From: Microthyrium microscopicum
Taxonomy: Eukaryota
DNA length: 64,000 bases
Reading direction: 5' to 3'
NCBI GenBank assembly: GCA_010405405.1
Contig: MU004233.1
Span: 2,396,539-2,460,538, forward strand
In this document: in pieces, positions 4,553 through 23,571 of the stretch
How positions within the stretch are numbered: position 1 is the first letter of the stretch
How the letters are laid out: every line of letters starts with the position of its first letter
Notes under the pieces: model-generated
What the model was told of the DNA's origin: nothing
What the model saw: the letters and a program-made list of their open reading frames with translations, nothing else
Databases searched by the model: none
Made by a program: the position numbers and the translations under genes

Positions 4553-6165
4553 CTAGTTATGAATTACCCGCATTTGAGGGGAATTATATGACAAGCGTTG
4601 GTCATGAGATGTCCCCAACAACTCTTCGTGCTCTGACTCCCAGCCATCATCCAGCCAGGGACACGAGATGGCAACTTGCTCCACAAACTTCTGGCTGAAG
4701 CCCATTTTTGCGTCTTGAGGAAGCACGACCTCCAGCTTTTTCAGAGTCTTCCAGCTAGGCAATAGCGAGAGAAGCATTTCACATGGTGTAATTTCGACTG
4801 GGGCAATATCCATGGACATACCATTCGATTGCCTGACATATCGTAGGTCGTAACTGTCTGTGTCCACAAGCCTAGCATTGGTAGCCACAAAGACAATATG
4901 CTCGAGGGCCGAAAGGTCGCAATATTGGTCTAATTCGGCCAATAGAATATTTAGTTCTGGGTCGGAGTAGACAAAATTGACCTTAATGGAGAGTCTTGTC
5001 AGTGAAGCTCCTCGTAACTGTATATTTGTTCAGTGTTAGCGATATGAAATTCCGTTAGAAGTGACTACCGGTATCCTGCTAAAAAGGAGACTTCTTAGTG
5101 GCATAAAGTCCCGATTTATAGCATGCCACTGGAACAACGATGCTGATGTTAGGTATGAATGAAAACTCACCCTAGGTAGAAATTCTAGGCATTGCCTCAT
5201 GCTTTTTACCACAAGTCGAAAGTCATTAAGCTGCCTAAGCGGTAATTCGAAATCGAGGCCATTTCTTGACTGGTGCATGTAGTAGATGTTGAGGGTAAGC
5301 ACCTCGAGGTTAGAATGCTTCACGACCTCATTTTGTATTTCTTCAGACGCCGACTCAGTGAAAACAAAACGTTGAAGAGCACCGCCTTTTACAAAATCCA
5401 AGATTTGGTTGGATATCTGCGGCGAAAGTTGGAATACAGGGGCAATGTCGTAAGCTCTTTGGCAAATGAGTATACGAAGCTTCGGCTTCAACCTCTGAAG
5501 GATATCAAGTCTATACACATATAGAGCTAGAGATTCAGGGTATAGCGTGATTATTTCAAACCTGAGATCTTTTATTCTACTGGAGAAAAAGAGCCTTGCA
5601 TAGCAGAAGGGATCTTCTGCCAGGGTATCCGAGATCCACAAGCTTTCTAGCCGAGGGAACCATGATTTTGGTTCCCGAAAGGTAAGCATCTGTGGAATAA
5701 GCTGAGCATCTATGTCGTATTTGCTCTCACGTATGGAAAGAGACTTGATGCGGTGGGCATAGTAGTCAAACCTCTCACAATCAGCAGATACAATGTCTCG
5801 TCTGAACTCCTAAATACACTCACTTAGACTTTATGAGAAAAATGTGTTCGGTGTAGGGAACAACTTACAATGATTTGCCCATTATGAATGTTTGGTTTGT
5901 TGTACTTGCATCGGACACTGCAAAGACTTGGTGGGAATAGATGAAATAGCTGAGCTAGTCGTGGCACGAACATCCAAAGCGCATTTAGTGCTGGTTCCAG
6001 GAAGTTCTTGGACACCAGGGCAATCTCTAGCAGATATGTTGGCGGATGTAGAGGTACATACTCGATATCCGGGTGGTGGTCGCCAAACGAGTAAGAAGGC
6101 GTAATGTGCTCAACTATCAAGCCACATATCTCGGGCAGTCCCAGAGCCCGTTGACATGCGCTCAT
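4553..6165 (-). CDS. Fungal F-box-like / LRR-like protein, multi-exon
   Basis: MSACQRALGLPEICGLIV, LVSKNFLEPALNALW and (after an intron) CERFDYYAHRIKSL, followed by LxxLxL-type segments. The ORFs 5824-6177, 5036-5689 and 4553-4942 are joined by plausible introns. Confidence 0.6.
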
Positions 6166-7608: not shown

Positions 7609-9529
7609 GTGCTATTGTGCTGAGATGGAATGAAATATCCCGAAATACTTCCAATGTCATGGTTATACTTTATGGAAGAGAAAAGACGTCCCTTGGGCTC
7701 GGGTGCTCACTCAGAGCATTCTGGGCGGCGTAAACACCGGGATTAGTTTCAAAGGATTTTTGCGAGAACAAATAAGATGGGCCAGCAGCTCTCCTTACAT
7801 CAAATATGAAGCTTTGATGAAAAGCCTGGAAGCTTGTGTAGAAGCTTATCGGGAGATGGGTCTCCAAGCTCTGTTATTAACAGGCAGCAGGATGCTGCCA
7901 CCTAGAGTAAACTACGAATGCTCTATCTGTAATTGGCCTTATACTATCTCCTTTGGTTATCATGCTTCCATTCTTGCTTGCAATCCCACAGCGACTGTGC
8001 AGGTCCGTATTCGTAGGATTTACGGCAAGCGATGGGAGTCTCTCAATCAATATATTATCCAATAGAGGTCCATGAATCCAGGGCGCGGTGAGATAGACAG
8101 GAATCTTCAAGCTCCAATGCTAAACATTACGGCATTTAAGATTCCTATTGTATGTATCTGGTGGCCATATGGTCAGTCTATTGCCTCGGCTGTCATTGTT
8201 ATGTCCATTCTTTCGAACAGTCAGATCTGGAGATGTAGGATTAAACTACCATATCGCCGTGACTTGCGATCTCACCGTCAGCCACCGCTCAGATAAGGAA
8301 AGTATCTGTACCGTATATCGCTATGTAGGATTGATCTAGCTGCTGACCGCTCTATATCCTCGTATCAAATCATCAATGTAACGTAAAAAGTGATAAGGAT
8401 TGAAAAAGAGGAACCTAAGTGATGTTCTGGTTGCTCTCCTGCTATCCTTTGCGGCGAGACTATCCAATATGCCTTGAATTCGCAGGATAGGGATGGAGAG
8501 AACACAGCAAAAGAGTTCTAAACTTGGACCATAGTTAACTTCTCTAATTTACCGAACCAATCTATCGAATGTGTTGGCATTCTGCTCGAGACGGGATCAA
8601 GAAAGGGAAAAAGAACATGTCGCCGGTTCTTATAAACCAAACGAGTACTGAAACGCAGTTCTTTCCGCGATTTGGTCATGAAAACACATTCATACGGACC
8701 ACCTCTCCATACAATCAAGCCTACTAGCCACCAGACATGCTTCAGCAATCTTCAAAATTCAAATCTCAACTCTTTTAGCTGCTATCGCCGTATCCATTGC
8801 CACAATCAATGCGCAGAAATACAGTGGAGTAAGTTCTTAGCGGCGTTAAAGTATTCAGTAAACGCTAAAGTCCTATTAGACATGTGCATCTAACAAGTGT
8901 TCTGTTACTCATGACAACTTACAAGTTGGCAACATCAGGCACTTGCGGGAACCTAGTAAGTACAAGATTTAAGTATATCGATAGTAAAAGAGACTGACAG
9001 GTTTGTTAACAGTGTACTAGAGGGGAGTGTACGATCTTCTACCAAGCTAAGATTGGAATACCAGTGGTCACTTGTGTCTAAGCAACAGAGTTGTCTTCTG
9101 TTTGAGCTCATAAGCTTGCTGGAAGCTCTGTCAAGTCTGGTACAAGCTGATGATGATGTGATCATCACAGAATAGATAGAAAATACACTTCAATTTGTTG
9201 AGATTCTGCTGTCAAGATCAAAAGCTTAGGCTTACTAGATCCATTGAAGTAATGGTTTCAAACCAAGATCGTATCTGCTGAGTTGAATACCATCCTATAA
9301 GCTCATCACACTCGGGAGCACTGTATATCCCTTAGAACCTCGTCAAAGCCCACAGTGATCAGATATTCCAAAAGCATACGCGATATAGTTGACCTAAAAG
9401 TCATAAAATTCATTACAATATCCAATAAAGATGTCTCATATATGCTAACGAAGTCATAACTGCCCAGTCTCTCCCCAACCGCATATCACAAGTCACACCC
9501 AACATACACATCCATATCACCTCGTCCAA

Positions 9530-12883: not shown

Positions 12884-15626
12884 GGCGAATACTAGTAGGG
12901 AGACAAACTCGCTGATGGAGAAATAATTAATGTGAAATATCAGTCAGGCTCAAATGCGCGCAGGATTGAATGCAGATGTTCAAGTCGGCTCCAGTATGGC
13001 GGTTGAAAAAAGATCCAGATGGCTCCAACTTATGAATGGTGGTTGACCTTCTCGTCAATTTTGGGCACGGAAAGTGCTTTGGACCAGAAAAGAAGCTTCT
13101 CCTGATATCAATGGCTAGAAACGAGTAATGGCAGGCTTGGGGTGGGATGAGAAGTTAAGAAGTAGAGCCTGTTGAAGCAGGAGAAGGTGCAGCGTCAGGG
13201 TGCGAGAGTCTATGGGGAAGGCCGGGGACCGCCTTGATTGATTGCGCTTTGTTCTGGACGTGATAAGGCGGAGGGTCCAGAATAAATGAGTAGGACAGGC
13301 CTAGTTTAAGATCAAGATAGCAGCGACCAGGTGTTTTAGTGCCTGGTAACGGGATAAAATCCTTGGTCCAAGTGAGAATCAGGTTCGATGGTTTCGATGA
13401 TTTGCCGCAACGCGAGGCATGCAGCAAGCACGTTCTGCAGATTGAGAAGGGACTTTGGAAGTAAGTGTACGCCACGCAGTGTTTTATGCGGTTTTACTGT
13501 GGATAGTGATCTCGAAAGGGTTCCTGTCGTAATCCAGATGGTAATTGTCGACGTTAATCCAGGACAGAGAAGAGCGAACACGCGACGTGGAGGGGGAAAT
13601 CCAGCAAGACAGTTGGTGACGGTGAGTTGAGAAATCTAAAAACCAAGAATTAGACACCGAGCAGAAGGAAGGCTTGGACTAGGTTTATCGGGAAGGAAAG
13701 AAAGCAAAAAGTGAGCGAAGGCAAAAAAGAATGGAATTGGATGATTTCGTTTCGTACGCACTGACTGCGGGCAGGAGGAAAGGCTCGCAACAAGACCACC
13801 AGCCCTTGGAAAAGTCTCAGGTGGTGGGTTTCTGGTCAAACGGGCGAGCAAAACGACCCTACGAGGATAAGCCTATCTAACGGCTATTATGACCCTCATT
13901 GTTCTTAATAGGTACCCAGTAGAGCAATAGTCTGGAATAAAGGGCATGGCTATGCGCTTCACTTGGCAGCTACTGTACTTGGGATTGTGAGCACAAGCAG
14001 CATTAATCCTAGATGTTTTAATGGCTGGCCCAAATTAATCCCACGATTCCATCCAGTGTGTACTGTGTATCGTGACTTCCGTTCCATGGTACATTGTATC
14101 CTTCTAAAGTGCTTTCTAGTCCGTGAATTGCTTAAGTCAAGCCTCAAACTATCGAATGCCATGACAAACATAACTTCGCCCGCTTCGCATCCAGCAGCAG
14201 ATGCGCAACCCTCAACTGGTACAGGAAGACCTAGATCACGTACTCTTTAAATTTGATAGATACTTGCCTGCCACTATGTAACGCCACTATGCACTACTTG
14301 AGCTCAAAGTCTGGCCAGAGCGTCCTAAAATTGACAATTCGTTGTCCACTTGTTCCTCCAACCCCCGGTTTTAACCACATTTCTATAGTAATTGGCTGCA
14401 TTAGGCCAATCGTTACCGTACGCCATGAGCGCTTGTTACCTGTCATCGAACCAGCCACGGCCCACGAGCTCACATTAAAGATTGCCTTGCATATCGACTG
14501 CATCGTATCAAAAGGGGAGCCGTGACGATAGAATCCGGCTCTCTGCAAGGGATTATCTGGACCTCATGATCTCCGCAATTTCTACTGATCCAAGAATAGG
14601 CTCGAGGGCAGGCTCCGCACCTAAAGAAATTACACCATCAGATTAACTCCAGAGTTGCACAAGGCACATGGTGGAGGAGGCGTTGAAACGCGCGGGAGTT
14701 CAAACTTAATTGAGTGGCTATGTCTGCGGATTATCCAACGGCCAAGGACCCACACTTTGTGTTCACTCTGGAGTAAAGGCATGGCATTGGCATGAAGGCG
14801 GGACAATGCTGGGATAGACCGATAGAGGCAGGCACAGCAGGCTCAATAATGCACAATGCTGGGGGAGTTGCACAGTGCAAAAAGAAGAGAGGTCGTTTCA
14901 CGAGACCCACTCTTCTGATTGAAGTCATTGGTGTCGCGATATAATCTGGGAGACTGGGATCATGGAAGAAGCGTAAAATAGGGGCAATGCAGTCTCTAGG
15001 AATGGTCTAGCGTTCCCGCTGAAACCGCATCGTTGCGCATTAATCAACACCACACGCCCATGTTCGAGAAGTGCAACAAAAGGCTTCTATTGCAGAAATA
15101 TTGCATTCTTGTTTATTGCTTTGAGACTGCTTAAAGACTCACTGCTGACTACTCTCTTTCATCAATGCCGTTTCTTCCTTTCCATATGAAAATAGGCAAC
15201 GGCCTTAATTGCTTCTATTATAGCTGCCATTTCAAAACACTCCATCCTCTTGCCTCGTCAGCATCGCGCATACCTTATGCAAGATGGACAGGATCTAGGG
15301 TTTCGCCAGTCGATCGTTGTACTTGGTTGGTGCCTGCTTGCGAAAAGCTTGTCTTGGTTCCCATCGACTCGTCTTCCTGCATCCTACATTGTTTTACCAT
15401 TTCATCCAACGTCGTCACGCCAATGTCTTGAAAATATCTTATATCCATATTACACCTTGCAATCCCTCATCATTAGTCACACAACTCGCTTGCCGATTTT
15501 CCGAAACAAGAATTGAAAGATAGCTTGAAGCTTCGTAGACGACAAAGCTGAATATCTGATCACTGATGAACAAGAGCAACTCGTTGCGAGACATTTGCAT
15601 TACTAATCGCTATAGCTTGTAGCGTT

Positions 15627-16567
15627 TCATGCAACAACCTCAGTAGCTCCCGGCGCTGCTGCAATTCCTTGTCTGGCGAAAGGAGCCGCAAACCCATACG
15701 TAGCCCAACCTTGCTCATAGCTCTTATCCGCTTCTCTCTCTACGAAATAATTAGCATCCTTTGCAGAGCCCAGCGAGGTATTTCTTACCATGGTCAGGTG
15801 GAAACGCAATCCTTCTATGCGTATAATACTTTTCTCTCAAATCCGCCCCATCCGACGCCCCATGGAACGTAGCATACAGACTCGCCCTTGGCTTACTCGA
15901 GTTATTTGGTCCTGATCGATGTGCCAAATGGCTCCCAAAGATCAACACATCGCCAGAATCCAACGGCACCTGGATCCAGTCGTGAGCGTCCGTCCAGGCG
16001 TCGCTGATTCGTCCGCCTTCTGCGAGCTCAACGTCCATGCGATGTGAGCCGGGCACGACTTCGAGGCAGCCGTTTTCTGGCGTTGCAGCGTCGATGGCAA
16101 AGTTGGCGGTGACATGCTCGATTTTGGAAATGTGGTCGTAGGCTGGGGCGTCGAGATGGGGTTGGAAGCCGTTGCCTTTGGGAGCTTTGTAGTTGATTTT
16201 GTCTTTGAAGAGGAGCATTTTCTGTGAAAGAAGCATCAGCCATGAGATTGAGCAAGCTGTGAGTACAACATACATCGTCTGATACTTGCTCTAGTAAGCT
16301 CGCAATACCTTCGCCGAACAGGAGGTCGCCAAATTGCTCATGATAGTCTGAGAACTTCTCTGTTCGCATGAGTTGCATTTGGCCATCAGCGTTGACTTCG
16401 TCGTATGGCATCCACTTTCCCTTGACCTTTGGCCAATTGCGAACTTCATCAGTCCATGCTTGAAGTTTCTCTGGATCAACTAAATTATGCTCGTCTGCAC
16501 GAAGAACCAAAAACCCATTGGTGTTATAACTGTCGACTTGAGCTTTGGATAGACGAAGTGGTGCCAT
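15627..16567 (-). CDS. phnY: PhyH-family Fe(II)/2-oxoglutarate dioxygenase, PhnY-like (2-aminoethylphosphonate dioxygenase-like), 3 exons
   Basis: SYNTNGFLVLR N-terminus; LFKDKINYKAPKGNGFQPHLD (HxD); DAATPENGCLEVVPGSH; GDVLIFGSHLAHRSGPN.S.KPR (distal His, 2OG Arg). Introns at about 16273-16222 and about 15788-15739. Confidence 0.85.
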
Positions 16568-16711
16568 TGTGAAGAGCAAGAATATCTTTGTGAAATAATG
16601 GTAAACTGTTTAACGTTTGATTCAGTTGTTGATTCTTTTACTCCCGAATTATCAAAAGCTATTTATGTAATGAGATTCTTGACTTTCACAAGGGTGTTGA
16701 GTCCGACTGTA

Positions 16712-16774
16712 TCGACCTTCTTGCCGAGACTAGCAAGGTATGACCAAGGTGGGATATATCGGCCTTCTTGCCGA
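16712..16774 (+). promoter_or_regulatory. Two copies of ATCG(A/G)CCTTCTTGCCGA (CGN-N8-CCG), candidate Zn2Cys6 binding sites in the phnY / phnZ-phnA divergent promoter
   Basis: 16711-16727 ATCGACCTTCTTGCCGA and 16758-16774 ATCGGCCTTCTTGCCGA. The second copy is a perfect CGG-N8-CCG inverted triplet. Confidence 0.65.
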
Positions 16775-16945
16775 TGGTGTTTTTATGCCGCAAAATGCTT
16801 CAGATCGACATTTAGGATAACTTCATATCATGTGAAAGATAATCTCGCGGCGAAGTCCTTCATCATGAAGCCTATATATAATAAACTCGAAGCGAATTGA
16901 ACAGTGTTACGCATCTTCCTAGAACATCATAACTCGCATCCAAAA

Positions 16946-18898
16946 ATGGCAGTCAACACTACCCCCGTTCTTCCCTCCGTCCTGAACAACGCCCGTCAAA
17001 CAGTCGACACTCTCTTCGCTTTCATCAAAGCGCAAGGCGACGCCGACTACATCGGCGAAGCCGTATCCCAACTCGAACACTCTCTCCAAACCGCCCACCG
17101 CGCACAAAAAGCATCCGCAGACAACGAGACGGTTTTGGCCGCCCTTCTTCACGATGTTGGTCGCTTCATTCCCAAAGCATCCGAAATGCCTGCTATGATT
17201 GCCCTCGATGGCACATATGTTGGCACAGCGTCCCATGAGATTTTGGGGGAGAACTATCTGAGGCAGCTGGGCTTTAGCGATAAGGTGTGTCAGTTGGTGG
17301 GCGCGCATGTTATGGCAAAGAGGTATCTGACGGCTGTGAATCGTGGGTATTATGATACGTTGTCGCCGTCGAGTAAGACGACGTTGAGATATCAGGTGAG
17401 TGCACTCTAGGATGGTTATGATGCAGTGACTAACAGCGACAGGGTGGCGTGTTTACTGAGGAGCAGGTTAAAGCTGCTGAGAAAGATCCTCTCTTGCAAA
17501 TGAAATTGGCTGTTCGAAGATGGGATGATTTGGCAAAGGAAGCAGGCGCGAAAACTCCAAGTCTTGCCGATTATCGCGACCTTGCTGTAAAATGTCTAAT
17601 CGGTGAGTGCTTCAAGTCCATGGCTTCGCTTTTTGCTGATTTCATAAGACTCTCGGGCTCAAATCTCTCTGCATTCAAGGACGTATCGCATGCCAACTTG
17701 GCAAACAGTTGTCATATGCGTTGACGGCTTCGATCCATCATATCTGGAACGAGGAGTTGAGGATAGGATTCTACCCACCATTGGATCGTTCCTCAAAAAT
17801 GGATTCCATACCACTGCGAAATCAGCAATGCCGTCTTTCACCAATCCCAACAACGTCTCCATCATCACTGGAGTATCACCAGCTGTGCACGGCATAGCTG
17901 GCAACTACTTCCTCGACCGCGAAACTGGCAAGGAAATCATGATCCAAGACGACAGTTTACTACGTGGATCCACCATTCTGGAACAAATGTCCAAGAACGG
18001 GGTGCGGGTGGCAGCCATCACAGCTAAAGACAAACTCCGCAAGATCCTGAAACATGGTCTTCGACTAGGCGAGGACGCGTCGATCTGCTTCTCGGCTGAA
18101 AAAGCGGCTTCGTGCTCCGAGAAAGAGCATGGCGTTTCGAATGTCGAGGACCTCGTCGGTCGTAAACAGCCCGATCAATTTTCAGCCGATTTGTCACTGT
18201 TTGTGCTAGATGCTGGGATCAAAATTCTGGAACAGGAGCTTGCGGACGTCTTCTATTTGACTTTATCAGATTATGTTCAGCATAAGCATGCACCTGGCGA
18301 GAAAGAAGCGAATGATTTCTACAAAGCTTTAGACTCGCAAGTGGCTCGACTGATCCAGCTCGGCGCTAGAGTAGCCATTACGGGTGATCATGGAATGAAC
18401 GAAAAGTGCGGACCCGATGGAACCCCAGATGTGCTGTTCCTTCAAGACGAGCTCGAGAAGAAATTTGGTCAAGGCTGCTGCCGAGTAATTTGCCCCATTA
18501 CCGATCCTTTTGTTCGACACCACGCGGGACTGGGCTCATTCGTTCGCGTCTATGTGTCGAAAGAGAAGCCAGTGGACGTGGATGCCATGATACAATGCTG
18601 CCAAACATTCCCACAAGTCGAAGTCGCTACAGATGGTGCAGATGGATGCAAGAGATTCGAAATGCCTTTGGACCGCGAAGGAGACATTGTTGTAGTGGCG
18701 AGGCAGCATTCTGTTATTGGCTCGAGCCGAGAGGAACATGATATGGCAAATATCAACGATCATAAGCTCCGTTCGCACGGAGGTCTCTCTGAAGTTGAGG
18801 TACCCTTGATATTGTCAGAAAAGATAAGAGATGCCGAGTCTGTTGCTGGGAAGGATTGGCGTAACTTTGACGTCTTCGATTTGGCTTTGAACTATTAG
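16946..18898 (+). CDS. phnZ-phnA: Fusion protein: PhnZ-like HD-domain di-iron oxygenase + PhnA phosphonoacetate hydrolase (alkaline phosphatase superfamily), about 619 aa
   Basis: Exons 16946-17395, 17443-17602, 17649-18898. HD part: YIGEAVSQLEHSLQ, ALLHDVG, HEILG, HVMAKRYL, LSPSSKTTLRYQ|GG, RRWDDLAK. PhnA part: TYRMP..TVVICVDG, MPSFTNPNNVSIITG, AKDKLR, YLTLSDYVQHKHAPG, TGDHGM, CPITDPFVRHH, LRSHGG. The 46-nt intron 17603-17648 joins the two domains in frame. Confidence 0.9.
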
Positions 18899-18947
18899 CA
18901 GCCTTGAATACAATCAATACGATATCTTCGAGGCCTGGTGCTCTATC

Positions 18948-21024
18948 TCATATGTCGTTGGCAGTATCGAATCCAAGCGGAAAATTCCATGCTTCTGTGG
19001 ACATGTCCGCATGTGATGACAGAAGATCAAAGTTATCCACCCAATATAAGGCATCTCCTGATATTTGCGGATATGCCATGTCTGCATTGATTTGGGACTG
19101 CGAGCTCTCTGGCATGGAACTTTGAGGCTGCACAATGGGTCCTTCGTCGCATTTTTGGATGATCTTGTCAATTCCTTCAGCAATATATCGAAGCATATGC
19201 TGACGATGCATCGTAGCGGCGGACTCACGAAGAATTGATGCCATATTCCGCACCAAAACCATGATTTCGGCAGATCCTGTTCGTACGATCCCGGAAAATT
19301 TGGTTGCGACCTTGAGCAGAAAGACCATAGCGAACGCAATCATGGTGTCAAAATAAAGCGGTAGTCCATTGAGATATGACCTCAACTCCGTGTCGTTGAT
19401 GAATGTACGCAGTATTGCTTCTGCAGACATGATGGCCGCATTCGCAAACTCTTCTAGTTCCGGATGAAGCTTACTGGTCGGTAGTGTGATGCCTCTGAAT
19501 GCCAAAGAGCAGAGATAGAGCTTTGCAAAATGAAAGTGGAGCCCCACGCCCTTGCTTGGGTAGTCGCCTACATGGGCGTGATGGCTGAACTGATCATGCC
19601 AGTCTGCACGCCATGTGTCCAGAGCTATTACAAATCTGCGGAGTTTTGGTAGTAATTCCAGAGAAACTGCAGTTTCAACGTCAAGTCCAAATGTCTCGAA
19701 TACGCCACCGGAAATACACCAAATGTTGACTTGGCTCACCAGCCGAGAGTCTTCTTCGATAACGTAGGGTGAGTTGAGAAATTTGGAGGCTGCTTTGATT
19801 GAGTCGCATTCTCCAGACATTGGAGGGCGGCCATAACTGATACTGAAGTGACGATCACAGACAAAAACAAGATAGTACAGTCGTGTCTCTTGGTAGCCCC
19901 GAAGCTCGCCTTTAAGAGCTGAATTGATGCTGCGATGAAGAGAAAGCTGTGTGGCAAGACGGACGGCTGTAGTTCCTCAGTATTAGCTCGCTTCTCTTTG
20001 AATCGTGCGTTAAGCGCTCACCTGCAGCTGCCAAATTCCAGGAAACTTCGCTGAGCCAAAATGCGCCAATCAATAGCCCTCTGATATCATCCAGCCTGTT
20101 ATCCTTCAAGAACATTTGAGCAGAACATCTCGCAAGAAATGCTTGATAACAAGGCTCATATAGATGGGCGTGTTCTGTCGAATGCAGCGATCCAACCGTA
20201 CAAATTGCCGCAAATAGTAGAGAGGAGTTATATCTGATAGACCCAACATCTCGACTCTCTAGCAGGATCTTGTACAGGAAATGATCCAAGCGGTCTGAAT
20301 ATACTCCCAACAGCTGTTGAGCTTGCTCATGTGAGATTATGCCCTGCTCAATCAAGTCAGGCCCAACTCGAGTGACACCAGAAGGTCTGGCATGAGATGC
20401 GCGGTCATCACTCTGCTCAACACAGGCGGCTGGAATGATCGCCGGTCCTGATTCTGGGTCCATAACAACTTTCCATGGCTGATGAGGATGTTCTCGAGGT
20501 GACACCACCGATGGCTTTGCAGGTTTGGATGGTTTATCGTTCCCATCATATTCGCTGGCTGACGACGGGCTTCCATTCTGTTCTTGGCCATGAGAGATTT
20601 GAATCGAATCGTTTCGTCCCCCTCGTAGTTTCTCTATAATTGCCTCAAGAGTATTCACCTTTCGAGTGATTGACGTCTTCCAGCTGATTTCACTTATTAG
20701 CTAGTGCCCATCAAAAAGTAACAGTAGGTCGAACTTTGCATCGTCTTCCAATAGCATTTGCAAACTTCTGTTGATAGAGCATGATAGATTTCGTTTCTTA
20801 CATCTCGTACAAGGAGGTTCGCCATCTCGCATGTTACATTTTATCTTGATCTATTAGCATCTACGAATGTTCGAGGTAGATAAGATAAGTACCTTTTGTT
20901 TGCGACATGCTACGCATGCAGTAATCTTTCTCGTGATTTCCGGAAGCTTTCGGTCACCAAACGACTCTCTCAAACTCATGCCATTTGCAGGCATAGGCAC
21001 TGGGCTAGTTTCCATGGGTTCCAT
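18948..21024 (-). CDS. Zn(II)2Cys6 fungal transcription factor, multi-exon
   Basis: ACVACRKQK|IKCNMRDGEPPCTRCKKRNLSC zinc cluster split by an intron; middle homology region (SSLLFAAICTVG, LLIGAFWLS, DSRLVSQV). Confidence 0.92.
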
Positions 21025-21160
21025 CTGACCATCGGAGTCGATGCCGAATGGCGAGGAGCTCAACAGCGGGAAGGTCGGAAGGGTCACCGAGGTCGTGATT
21101 TTGAGAAGTTGAAGCAGTCGGAGGTGAAGCGATATTTAGCAAGGCGTAACATGGATGAGT

Positions 21161-21285
21161 TCGCTTTTCTTGCCGGAGGCGTTCTCAAAAGTGTGAAGCA
21201 TCCCGACTGATCTTCCACTGAGGTTGTTCATGGCAAAACGTGGTAGTTGATCTGCCCCCCACGCGTTGGGAAGGACCCGCACGTG
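21161..21285. promoter_or_regulatory. Regulator/transporter divergent promoter: third CGN-N8-CCG copy plus PHO-box-like E-boxes
   Basis: TCGCTTTTCTTGCCG 21161-21175; AACGTG (CACGTT on the minus strand) 21237-21242; CACGCG 21260-21265; CACGTG 21280-21285. Confidence 0.6.
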
Positions 21286-21531
21286 GAGTCGTGAGCTTCG
21301 TCCACTGGGTCAGTGAACATCTCCAACCTTCCATCTACTACATCTTGAACCTTTTGCTCTCAACGCCAGAGAACAACTGTATTCGAAATATTCGGACGCG
21401 ACACCTGCACTTCTCTCCGTTGAACAGATTCAAGATACTGCCATGGACGGAGATATATATCTGTCGTCCGCGACGACCCTGGGAATAGTCGGCTCTCTAG
21501 TCGAATGTGTAAATAAAACAATATACTCATT

Positions 21532-23408
21532 ATGTCTGAATCTCTCCTTTCCAAAGTCAAGTTCTTGGTGATCGCTGGTGTTGGGTTGTTCTCAGATGGC
21601 TTTTTGAACCTAGCTATAGTAAGTAAGAACATCTATTGTTAATACCATAGCATCTTGCACATCTCATGTACTTTATGTTGACCATGAAGCGCGATGCAAT
21701 TTCGTGCTGATCGACGGATCTGGTTTTGATTGCATCCTTTCATGATCTTGCGCTAACAAATATCAGGGACTTGGTATGTTGATATGGCTCAGTCATCGAA
21801 GCGGTAACCATACTGAACTTTTCAGTTGTCCAAATGCTTGGGTACATCTATTTCAAAGACGAAAAGAACGCTTTAGGCGTCATACAAGGCGATGAAGTCA
21901 AGGCTGGACTCAGTCTCGGTATGATAGGAGGTCAATTGGCTTTTGGCATTTTAGGAGATGCCCTTGGCCGACACAGTGTCTATGGCATTGAACTTATTAT
22001 CACCATGTTTGGCGTCTTGATGACCATACTGCTACCTTGGAAAGGTCTCTCGCACACTGGTATTGTAGCATGGATGACAATCTTTCGAGTAGTGACTGGC
22101 TTTGGAATTGGTGCAGGTAAGTTCTCCTCAATGTTATGCGGTCATAATTACTGATTTTGTTTATGGAACAGACTACCCCATGTCATCTTCTCTGTCTGCT
22201 GAGAAGACTGCTCTAGGATCTAGAGCTGTTCTGGTTCTTACAGTATTCTCTTGCATCGGAGCAGGTGCCATGGCTTCCAGCATTGTCTATCTCATTTTGC
22301 TTTCAGCCTTCAAGAGCTCAATTCTGCATGATATCAACCACCTTGAATGGGTCTGGCGACTCCTACTCGGTATTGGCATCATTCCAGCTGCCTTGACGCT
22401 CTACGCAAGATTGACCATGAAAGAGTCCAAGCCATATGAACAATGTGAGTTGCATTTTCTGGTAGACTGTAATATCGGCTGATCTCTTGTGCAGATGTTG
22501 CAAAGGAAACGAGCTTAACTAAGAAGGACCAGAGAGGCCTCAAAGAACAGTTTATTGACTTTCACAACTATTTCAAGGAGTGGAGACATGCCAAAGTCCT
22601 GTTCTCGGTCTCTGCAGTGTGGTTTCTATTGTAAGCATTTGTCGAAATGTCACTGATACTCCAGACTAACAGAGTCCACAGCGATATTGCCTACTACGGT
22701 ATCAATCTTAATCAAACCATCATTCTTGCTCAAATCGGGTACGGGAAGGGCAAAACGCCTTACGAAACTCTCCACAATACAGCCGTAGGAAACATCATAG
22801 TCCAAGCTGCTGTAAGTTCATCGTTTCCTCGCTTACATGAATTCTTGCTAAGTGACTAGGGATACCTCCCTGGATTTTGGATTGGAATATTCCTGCCAGA
22901 CCTCATCGGGCGTAAGAACCAGCAGTTCTGGTGCAGTCTAATTGTATGCGCCCTGTACGCAATCTGGGCTGGCATCACAAACCATACATCAACTGGTGGT
23001 CTAATGACAATATTCACAATCTCTCAACTGGTGATTAACGCGGGTCCTAATACAACCACATTTCTTCTTCCAGTCGAGCTATTTCCTACTCGTGTCAGAG
23101 CTACGGCACATGGTATTGCAGCTGCATCCGGCAAGTGCGGCGCTTTGCTGACAGCCTTTGCCTTTGGAACTATCACCGAGAAAATTGGCCTTCCAGGAGT
23201 CTTGGGTCTATTCTCTGGTATTATGTTCCTCTGCGCCTTGCTCACGCTTATGATTCCTGAGACCAAGGGCAAGACTCTGGACGATATTGAGAATGAAGTG
23301 CTGTATGGAGAGACCCCTCAGGTTCGGTATGCTGGATCCGAGACACCCTCAGATAAAAGTGTGACTGTGAAGCCCAAGTTGAATCAGATGGAGGATGTCG
23401 AAGTTTGA
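21532..23408 (+). CDS. MFS phosphate:H+ symporter family (Pho84/Git1-like) transporter, multi-exon
   Basis: IAGVGLFSDG, GQLAFGILGDALGR.SVYGIEL, GFGIGA|DYPMSS, WRLLLGIG, DIAYYGINLNQ, NAGPNTTTFLLPVELFPTRVRATAHGIAAASGKCGA, IPETKGKTL; 7-nt exon at 21767-21773. Confidence 0.93.
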
Positions 23409-23571
23409 AATCCATAACATTAATCTTATAATGTAAACCTTATCAACTGCTATGGGAGCTATCCAATGTCTTCCTTATACCAGAACGCTGTGTTCCAAAA
23501 GGGGATATCTAAACCTTACCCGCATGACACATCCTCCCACCAGCGATATATCCATCGAACCCCATAACAAC

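Follow-up and report, generated by a model that had tools for sequence, protein, structure and literature searches.

A conserved, spacing-specific TCGG-N8-CCGA element in both bidirectional promoters of a fungal phosphonate gene cluster: candidate sites for the cluster-encoded Zn2Cys6 regulator

Zinc-cluster regulators that are encoded in gene clusters and have CGG-Nx-CCG sites are textbook knowledge. In yeast, Gal4 binds several inverted CGG sites of the divergent GAL1-GAL10 promoter as a homodimer and controls two co-regulated catabolic genes. Bacterial phosphonate catabolism is controlled by the Pho regulon together with pathway regulators. The subject of this work is a candidate regulatory element, two inverted CGG triplets 8 bp apart, in a predicted phosphonate catabolism gene cluster of the fungus Microthyrium microscopicum. 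The cluster lies in a stretch of 64,000 nucleotides (contig MU004233.1 of assembly GCA_010405405.1, forward-strand positions 2,396,539 to 2,460,538), which is called the window and supplies the coordinates used below. Its four genes form two head-to-head pairs, a PhyH-family dioxygenase gene with an HD-PhnA gene, and a Zn2Cys6 regulator gene with an MFS transporter gene. The locus differs from the Gal4 system in its spacing, which is N8 rather than N11, and GAL4 is not clustered with its targets. With the bacterial systems it shares the enzymes PhnY*/PhnZ and PhnA and, likely, a phosphate-starvation input, while those systems have prokaryotic regulators and operons, no zinc-cluster factors, and no CGG sites.

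Two fungal systems with the same spacing are the closest in site architecture. In Aspergillus, CGGN8CCG is the site at which ClrB binds the promoters of (hemi)cellulase genes (Li et al. 2016, cited in PMC13267753 and PMC8313289), and a fragment containing CGGN8CCG is bound by BcSpd1 (PMC9280406). The elements described here resemble those of ClrB/CLR-2 in having inverted CGG triplets exactly 8 bp apart, and ClrB is a Zn2Cys6 activator of a catabolic regulon. However, the ClrB regulon consists of plant cell-wall enzymes, while the present one concerns phosphonate catabolism. In addition, the sites here are flanked as TCGG/CCGA, the strongest copies have an asymmetric pyrimidine-rich spacer, and two of the first three copies noted lack a complete triplet. 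The resemblance is in site architecture only, and orthology of the regulators is not suggested. In the gliotoxin cluster, TCGG-N3-CCGA is predicted in intergenic regions, CGG-N8-CCG is present in the 5' untranslated region (UTR) of gliA, and GliZ-mediated induction requires the latter site (PMC4006717). Like GliZ, the regulator here is a Zn2Cys6 factor encoded in a cluster that has TCGG/CCGA half-sites in its intergenic regions, and the functional N8 site within the 5' UTR of gliA is a precedent for two of the sites below, S3 and S4. Unlike the present cluster, the gliotoxin cluster makes a secondary metabolite, its main predicted spacing is N3, and the GliZ site is missing from the gliZ promoter, whereas here the regulator promoter is the richest in sites.

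Three 15-mers first noted in the cluster promoters belong to a larger signal, a pair of inverted CGG triplets 8 bp apart with the consensus TCGG-N8-CCGA. The two promoters and their sites are as follows.

16568..16945, P1, bidirectional promoter shared by the PhyH gene (- strand) and the HD-PhnA gene (+ strand)
16712..16727, + strand, S1 (copy 1), TCGACCTTCTTGCCGA, frame with 1 deviation, left triplet CGA
16759..16774, + strand, S2 (copy 2), TCGGCCTTCTTGCCGA, perfect frame
21025..21531, P2, bidirectional promoter shared by the Zn2Cys6 regulator gene (- strand) and the MFS transporter gene (+ strand)
21032..21047, no strand assigned, S3, TCGGAGTCGATGCCGA, perfect frame
21075..21090, no strand assigned, S4, TCGGAAGGGTCACCGA, perfect frame
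21161..21176, + strand, S5 (copy 3), TCGCTTTTCTTGCCGG, 2 deviations from the frame
21489..21504, no strand assigned, S6, a weak site, TCGGCTCTCTAGTCGA, 1 deviation, right triplet TCG

The frame is confined to the cluster promoters in its perfect form, and its spacing is specific. All three perfect copies of TCGG-N8-CCGA in the window (16759, 21032, and 21075) are within P1 and P2, which together make up 1.4% of the 64 kb. Perfect TCGG-Nx-CCGA with x = 3-7 or 9-13 does not occur in either promoter. When inverted CGG-Nx-CCG is considered for x = 0-15, the window promoters are occupied at x = 8 only, with three of the 12 window sites, and the rest of the window's CGG-N8-CCG sites are mostly inside long open frames. 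Frames with at most one deviation number 21 in the window, five of them in the promoters (16712, 16759, 21032, 21075, and 21489). Everted repeats have no matches in the window promoters and direct repeats have two, one at N6 and one at N14. The Leu3-type everted arrangement CCG-N4-CGG was rejected, as it has no copies in the promoters; the remaining everted or direct arrangements have at most one or two matches. Scarcity of sites was judged over the 64-kb window, a 31-kb contig that carries an orthologous cluster, and the mostly bacterial 7.3-Mb assembly to which that contig belongs.

The sites are close to the start codons, and a site-bearing promoter serves each of the four genes, including that of the regulator. 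The upstream distances of S1 from the PhyH and HD-PhnA ATGs are 145 and 219 bp, and those of S2 are 192 and 172 bp. S3 is upstream of both P2 genes, by 8 bp for the regulator ATG and by 485 bp for that of the transporter, and it is probably within the regulator 5' UTR. S4 is 51 bp upstream of the regulator ATG, S5 is separated from the regulator and transporter ATGs by 137 and 356 bp, respectively, and S6 is 28 bp upstream of the transporter ATG.

The sequence-only reading had placed the three 15-mers at 16712-16726, 16759-16773, and 21161-21175, and all three are present there on the + strand. Its list of sites was incomplete, since the two perfect copies at 21032 and 21075 (S3 and S4) were overlooked. 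The fixed distance of 8 bp that it proposed between CG-containing triplets is borne out, while the full CGG left triplet is found in just one of the three copies. That copy, copy 2, reads TCGG-CCTTCTTG-CCGA, a perfect inverted CGG pair with an 8-bp spacer. Together, copies 1 and 2 make up a direct repeat of 18 nt, TATCG(A/G)CCTTCTTGCCGA, which is identical at 17 of 18 positions and 47 bp apart. The repeat has sharp edges and unrelated flanks, and none of 300 dinucleotide shuffles of P1 contains one as good. Copy 3 is identical to copies 1 and 2 at only 12 of 15 positions. Some 12/15 match between 15-mers of the two promoters appears in 272 of 300 shuffles, and cross-promoter similarity was rejected as an uninformative statistic. 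The telling point for copy 3 is that the element already repeated in P1 is the one that recurs in P2, for which the chance is about 0.003-0.02 by our own arithmetic, a modest significance. The pattern TCGNYYTTCTTGCCG has these three matches and no others in the 64,000 bases (both strands), and none of 100 dinucleotide shuffles gives any match; this test is circular because the pattern was written from the copies themselves. The shared 9-mer TTCTTGCCG occurs four times in the window, in the three copies and at 2606, in a MAP-kinase-like coding sequence. The loose form CGN-N8-CCG is common in the window (103 matches versus 64 expected). An 8-mer found in both window promoters, TAGCAAGG, was set aside because it is within the chance expectation for 8-mers (own arithmetic).

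An orthologous cluster has the same frame in both of its promoters. The cluster was found by a scan of prokaryotic genome contigs, on a contig of 31,087 bases (L002; contig C16 of assembly G001). It has the five domains of the cluster in the order and orientation seen in the window, with 68% identity in the HD domain, 57% in the PhnA domain, and 39% in the C-terminal part of the regulator. The L002 and window promoters are unalignable, and blastn-short gives only an 11-nt exact word and a match in the TATA region. The 15-mer CGGACTTCCCACCGA (CGG-N8-CCGA) is present in identical form at 4778-4792 in L002 P1 and at 9257-9271 in L002 P2, on the same strand as the window copies. It is the longest exact word common to the two L002 promoters, and these are its only two copies in the 7.3-Mb assembly. 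Two of the eight CGG-N8-CCG sites on L002 are in the cluster promoters, and 13 of 5000 shuffles give at least two. L002 alone is an independent replicate of the N8 hypothesis. Inverted triplets occur in the L002 promoters twice at N8 and once at N9, and four of the 23 L002 frames with at most one deviation are there. One-deviation frames adjoin both L002 sites, at 4804 (TCGC...CCGA) and at 9327. Since one of them is beside the L002 P1 site, P1 carries a pair of sites in both species, 47 bp apart in the window and 27 bp apart in L002. The distance from the L002 P2 site (O3) to the transporter ATG is 354 bp by our own arithmetic, compared with 356 bp for S5. The sequence-only reading had proposed conservation in orthologous promoters as a check, and in this one ortholog both promoters retain the site.

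The promoters of the two species can also be considered together. In total, CGG-N8-CCG has five copies across the four promoters, for an expected mean of 0.23, and none of 5000 shuffles reaches five or places a copy in every promoter. When the five strong copies are aligned in register, they have CG-N3-TTC-N3-CCG in common; three of the seven window matches and all three L002 matches to this pattern are in the cluster promoters. These results bear on an alternative in which the copies have no function and are products of chance and of a small local duplication within P1. The high frequency of the loose frame and of matches as poor as that of copy 3 would fit such an origin. However, it does not account for the sharp edges of the 18-nt repeat, for an enrichment that is peculiar to the N8 spacing, for a four-promoter count that no shuffle matches, or for the conservation of sites between two species whose promoters cannot otherwise be aligned. 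This alternative is already disfavoured, and we consider it very improbable.

The exact 15-mer of the sequence-only reading is not in L002, where none of the nine TCG-N9-CCG matches contains TTCTTG. The loose pattern CGGNNTTCNNNCCGA is not enriched in assembly G001, with 13 matches compared with 10 for the reversed control. One near-copy in that assembly, on contig C22 (L005), was rejected since it is within a bacterial TPR-like open frame. A metagenome scan found one ortholog (L001), which has just 79 bp upstream of the match and is uninformative on the motif, and a scan of viral contigs found no relative. Runs X5, X6, and X7 carry the stretch with no other letters, and hence offer no diverged promoters for footprinting.

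The origin of L002 deserves comment. It is filed with a bacterial metagenome-assembled genome, yet its genes contain introns and are plainly fungal. Other contigs of the assembly, such as L005, look bacterial. L002 is probably a eukaryotic contaminant of the bacterial bin.

The element probably serves the cluster's own regulator. In this reading, which we favour, the Zn2Cys6 protein of the cluster binds TCGG-N8-CCGA as a homodimer and co-regulates the enzyme genes, the transporter gene, and its own gene. The neighbouring gene does encode a Zn2Cys6 factor, as the sequence-only reading had supposed. The Pfam family Zn_clus matches the L002 regulator with E = 2.4e-9 and exon 2 of the window's regulator with E = 4e-6, and the pattern C-X2-C-X6-C-X8-C-X2-C-X6-C is visible in the translation. 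Judged by eye only, the part that comes after the next intron looks heptad-like in both species. In an Atlas search the regulator matched generic clusters of ascomycete transcription factors and nothing more specific. Binding to CGG-Nx-CCG as a homodimer is the general mode of Zn2Cys6 factors (PMC4006717). The identity of the binder, its binding as a dimer, and activation are inferred. The candidate upstream activating sites, two inverted CGG triplets 8 bp apart, would occupy both bidirectional promoters; the cluster-encoded protein would bind them as a homodimer, and once bound it would co-activate the PhyH, HD(PhnZ)-PhnA, and transporter genes as well as its own.

Several observations weigh against this reading. 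The conservation comes from one orthologous promoter pair, that of L002. The nearest solved DNA-binding domain is that of Leu3, which binds everted triplets (everted N4). S3 and S4, at 8-66 bp from the regulator ATG, are probably downstream of its transcription start, a position resembling a 5' UTR that is less odd because the N8 site that gliA has in its 5' UTR is needed for induction. The left triplets of copies 1 and 3 are CGA and CGC, and binding of ClrB is abolished by loss of either triplet (PMC13267753). L002 also has ACGG-N8-CCGA at 807-823, where it precedes by about 130 bp a flanking gene that encodes a protein with BNR/Asp-box and Sortilin-Vps10 repeats. This site in an unrelated promoter may be due to chance, or it may be the site of another factor that reads CGG-N8-CCG. 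Several unrelated Zn2Cys6 factors use CGG-N8-CCG (PMC13267753, PMC9280406, PMC4006717). The last two points would suit an arrangement in which the sites are functional and bound by a zinc-cluster factor encoded elsewhere, such as a ClrB-like or general nutrient regulator, with the cluster's own factor acting in some other way. We regard this as quite unlikely, given that the regulator gene is next to the enzyme genes in both species and that its own promoter bears sites in both. Pathway-specific regulators in clusters also usually act on their own cluster (PMC4006717).

The letters of the spacer add to the points against binding through the frame alone. The most conserved letters in the window, TTCTTGCCG, fall largely in the spacer, and the TTCTTG word within them may itself be recognized. 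Of the ortholog's sequences, the one closest to any site of the window is TGGACCTTCTTGACGA (L002, 9095-9110, - strand), which is identical to S1 at 14 of 16 positions, a level that none of 1000 shuffles reaches, and in which both outer triplets are changed. The functional element could then be TTCTTG(C/A)(C/G)G(A/G), or YCSKCAAGAA on the other strand, read by an unrelated factor or by a zinc-cluster factor that acts as a monomer or reads a half-site, with the TCG at N8 secondary. TTCTTGC occurs six times in the four promoters versus 0.31 expected, which none of 3000 shuffles reaches. TTCTTGMSGR is found mostly in cluster promoters (three of four window copies and both L002 copies), although this pattern, like its bracketed form, was composed after the data were seen. 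The ortholog retains GACCTTCTTG exactly with altered outer triplets, and ATTTCTTGCGG adjoins O3, about as far from the transporter ATG as S5 is. On the other hand, the word is missing from ortholog P1, where TTCTTGC has no copies. It also leaves unexplained S3, S4, and the identical ortholog 15-mers, which lack it, as well as the strict specificity for N8. The sequence-only reading had stressed TTCTTGCCG, and this is not supported, as those letters are outside the frame-bearing ortholog 15-mers, whose spacer is ACTTCCCA. Overall, recognition of TTCTTG in place of the frame appears unlikely. The enrichment and partial conservation of the spacer letters suggest that the N8 frame and TTCTTG(C/A)(C/G)G(A/G) overlap as two signals, and the letters recognized may belong to either. 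In the Zn2Cys6 class, specificity depends in part on how long the spacer is and on its composition (PMC4006717).

A k-mer ranking of the promoters in both species brought up two further enriched words, of which CACGTG was chosen post hoc.

21280..21285, no strand assigned, CACGTG box (reads CACGTGG), one of three in the window
21237-21242, - strand, CACGTT, in window P2
16589, 16684 (- strand), and 16831 of the window, 4796 and 9390 (- strand) of L002, TGTGAAA

CACGTG occurs four times in the four promoters versus 0.39 expected, and two of 3000 shuffles reach four. It is depleted across the window, with three copies versus 11 expected. All four promoter copies are in P2, one in the window and three in L002; both P2 promoters additionally contain a single CACGTT, and the enzyme promoters have neither box. 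The L002 boxes of the two kinds are at 9128, 9153, 9395, and 9173. We take CACGTG and CACGTT to be candidate phosphate-starvation boxes of the Pho4/NUC-1 type, and those in P2 would add a phosphate-starvation input to the cluster. The restriction of CACGTG to the promoter of the regulator and transporter suggests a two-tier circuit. Phosphate starvation would raise the regulator and transporter through the P2 boxes, and the regulator, after entry of the substrate, would then act through TCGG-N8-CCGA on the enzyme promoter and feed back on its own. This circuit is put forward tentatively, as one possibility. TGTGAAA occurs five times in the four promoters versus 0.38 expected, and none of 3000 shuffles reaches five. 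Three of its copies are in window P1, which also has additional TTCTTG words, and the longest exact word common to P1 of both species is the 11-mer GACTTTCACAA.

The genes of the cluster are as follows.

15627..16567, - strand, PhyH-family 2-oxoglutarate/Fe(II) dioxygenase gene; the top NCBIfam match is a PhnY*-type methylphosphonate hydroxylase
16946..18898, + strand, HD-domain phosphonate oxygenase (PhnZ type, TIGR03276) followed by phosphonoacetate hydrolase (TIGR02335)
18948..21024, - strand, Zn2Cys6 regulator gene, with the six-cysteine domain interrupted by the intron at 20845-20892
21532..23408, + strand, MFS transporter gene, phosphate:H+ symporter family

The HD (PhnZ-type) and PhnA-type domains are probably encoded by a single fused gene. 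The phosphonoacetate hydrolase part scores 553 bits with TIGR02335 compared with a cut-off of 407.55. An intron of 45 nt at 17604-17648 (GTGAGT...AAG) would connect the HD and PhnA reading frames, and L002 (5478-5730) offers no separate start codon close to where the PhnA-type domain begins. The fusion is unconfirmed because a run X5 contig retains this intron. The metagenome ortholog of the HD gene (L001, 540-1500) has introns at matching places, and a PhnA-type domain is not obviously encoded 3' of its second intron, suggesting that the fusion partner of the HD domain may differ between fungi. A second contig (runs X1, X5, and X6) resembles part of the PhnA-type domain (17828-17935) with 18 differences and 2 gaps and then diverges. 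This suggests that a paralogous PhnA-like gene is present somewhere else in the same genome.

One contig of run X5, 7762 nt in length, bridges the whole cluster (15600-23410). It lacks three regulator introns (19967-20021, 20684-20734, and 20845-20892) and four short transporter introns within 22113-22860, all with CT..AC or GT..AG ends. It remains unspliced across the PhyH introns (16222-16273, and a second near 15741-15786) and the HD introns. This is a hint that the regulator and transporter are present as spliced transcripts in the X5 sample, for which the RNA label is a guess, and such contigs cannot rank expression.

The element is of the ordinary cluster-specific kind, and its novelty is in the pathway. 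Fungal phosphonate catabolism is already described for its enzymes; a PhnY/PhnZ fusion, PhoF, is known (PMC10574752), and phnY* and phnZ are neighbours in Penicillium (PMC12422055). Full-text literature searches found no paper naming a regulator or cis-element for the fungal phosphonate pathway, and the extract of PMC12479703 contains nothing on regulators. The site is thus new for fungal phosphonate catabolism and unsurprising in kind. The set of sites is independent support for the four genes as one regulon, and TCGG-N8-CCGA can serve as a search pattern for more members of the regulon in whole genomes. If true, the two-tier circuit would give eukaryotic phosphonate catabolism its first described regulatory circuit. 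A conserved site with a specific spacing is a direct handle on how fungi decide to use phosphonates.

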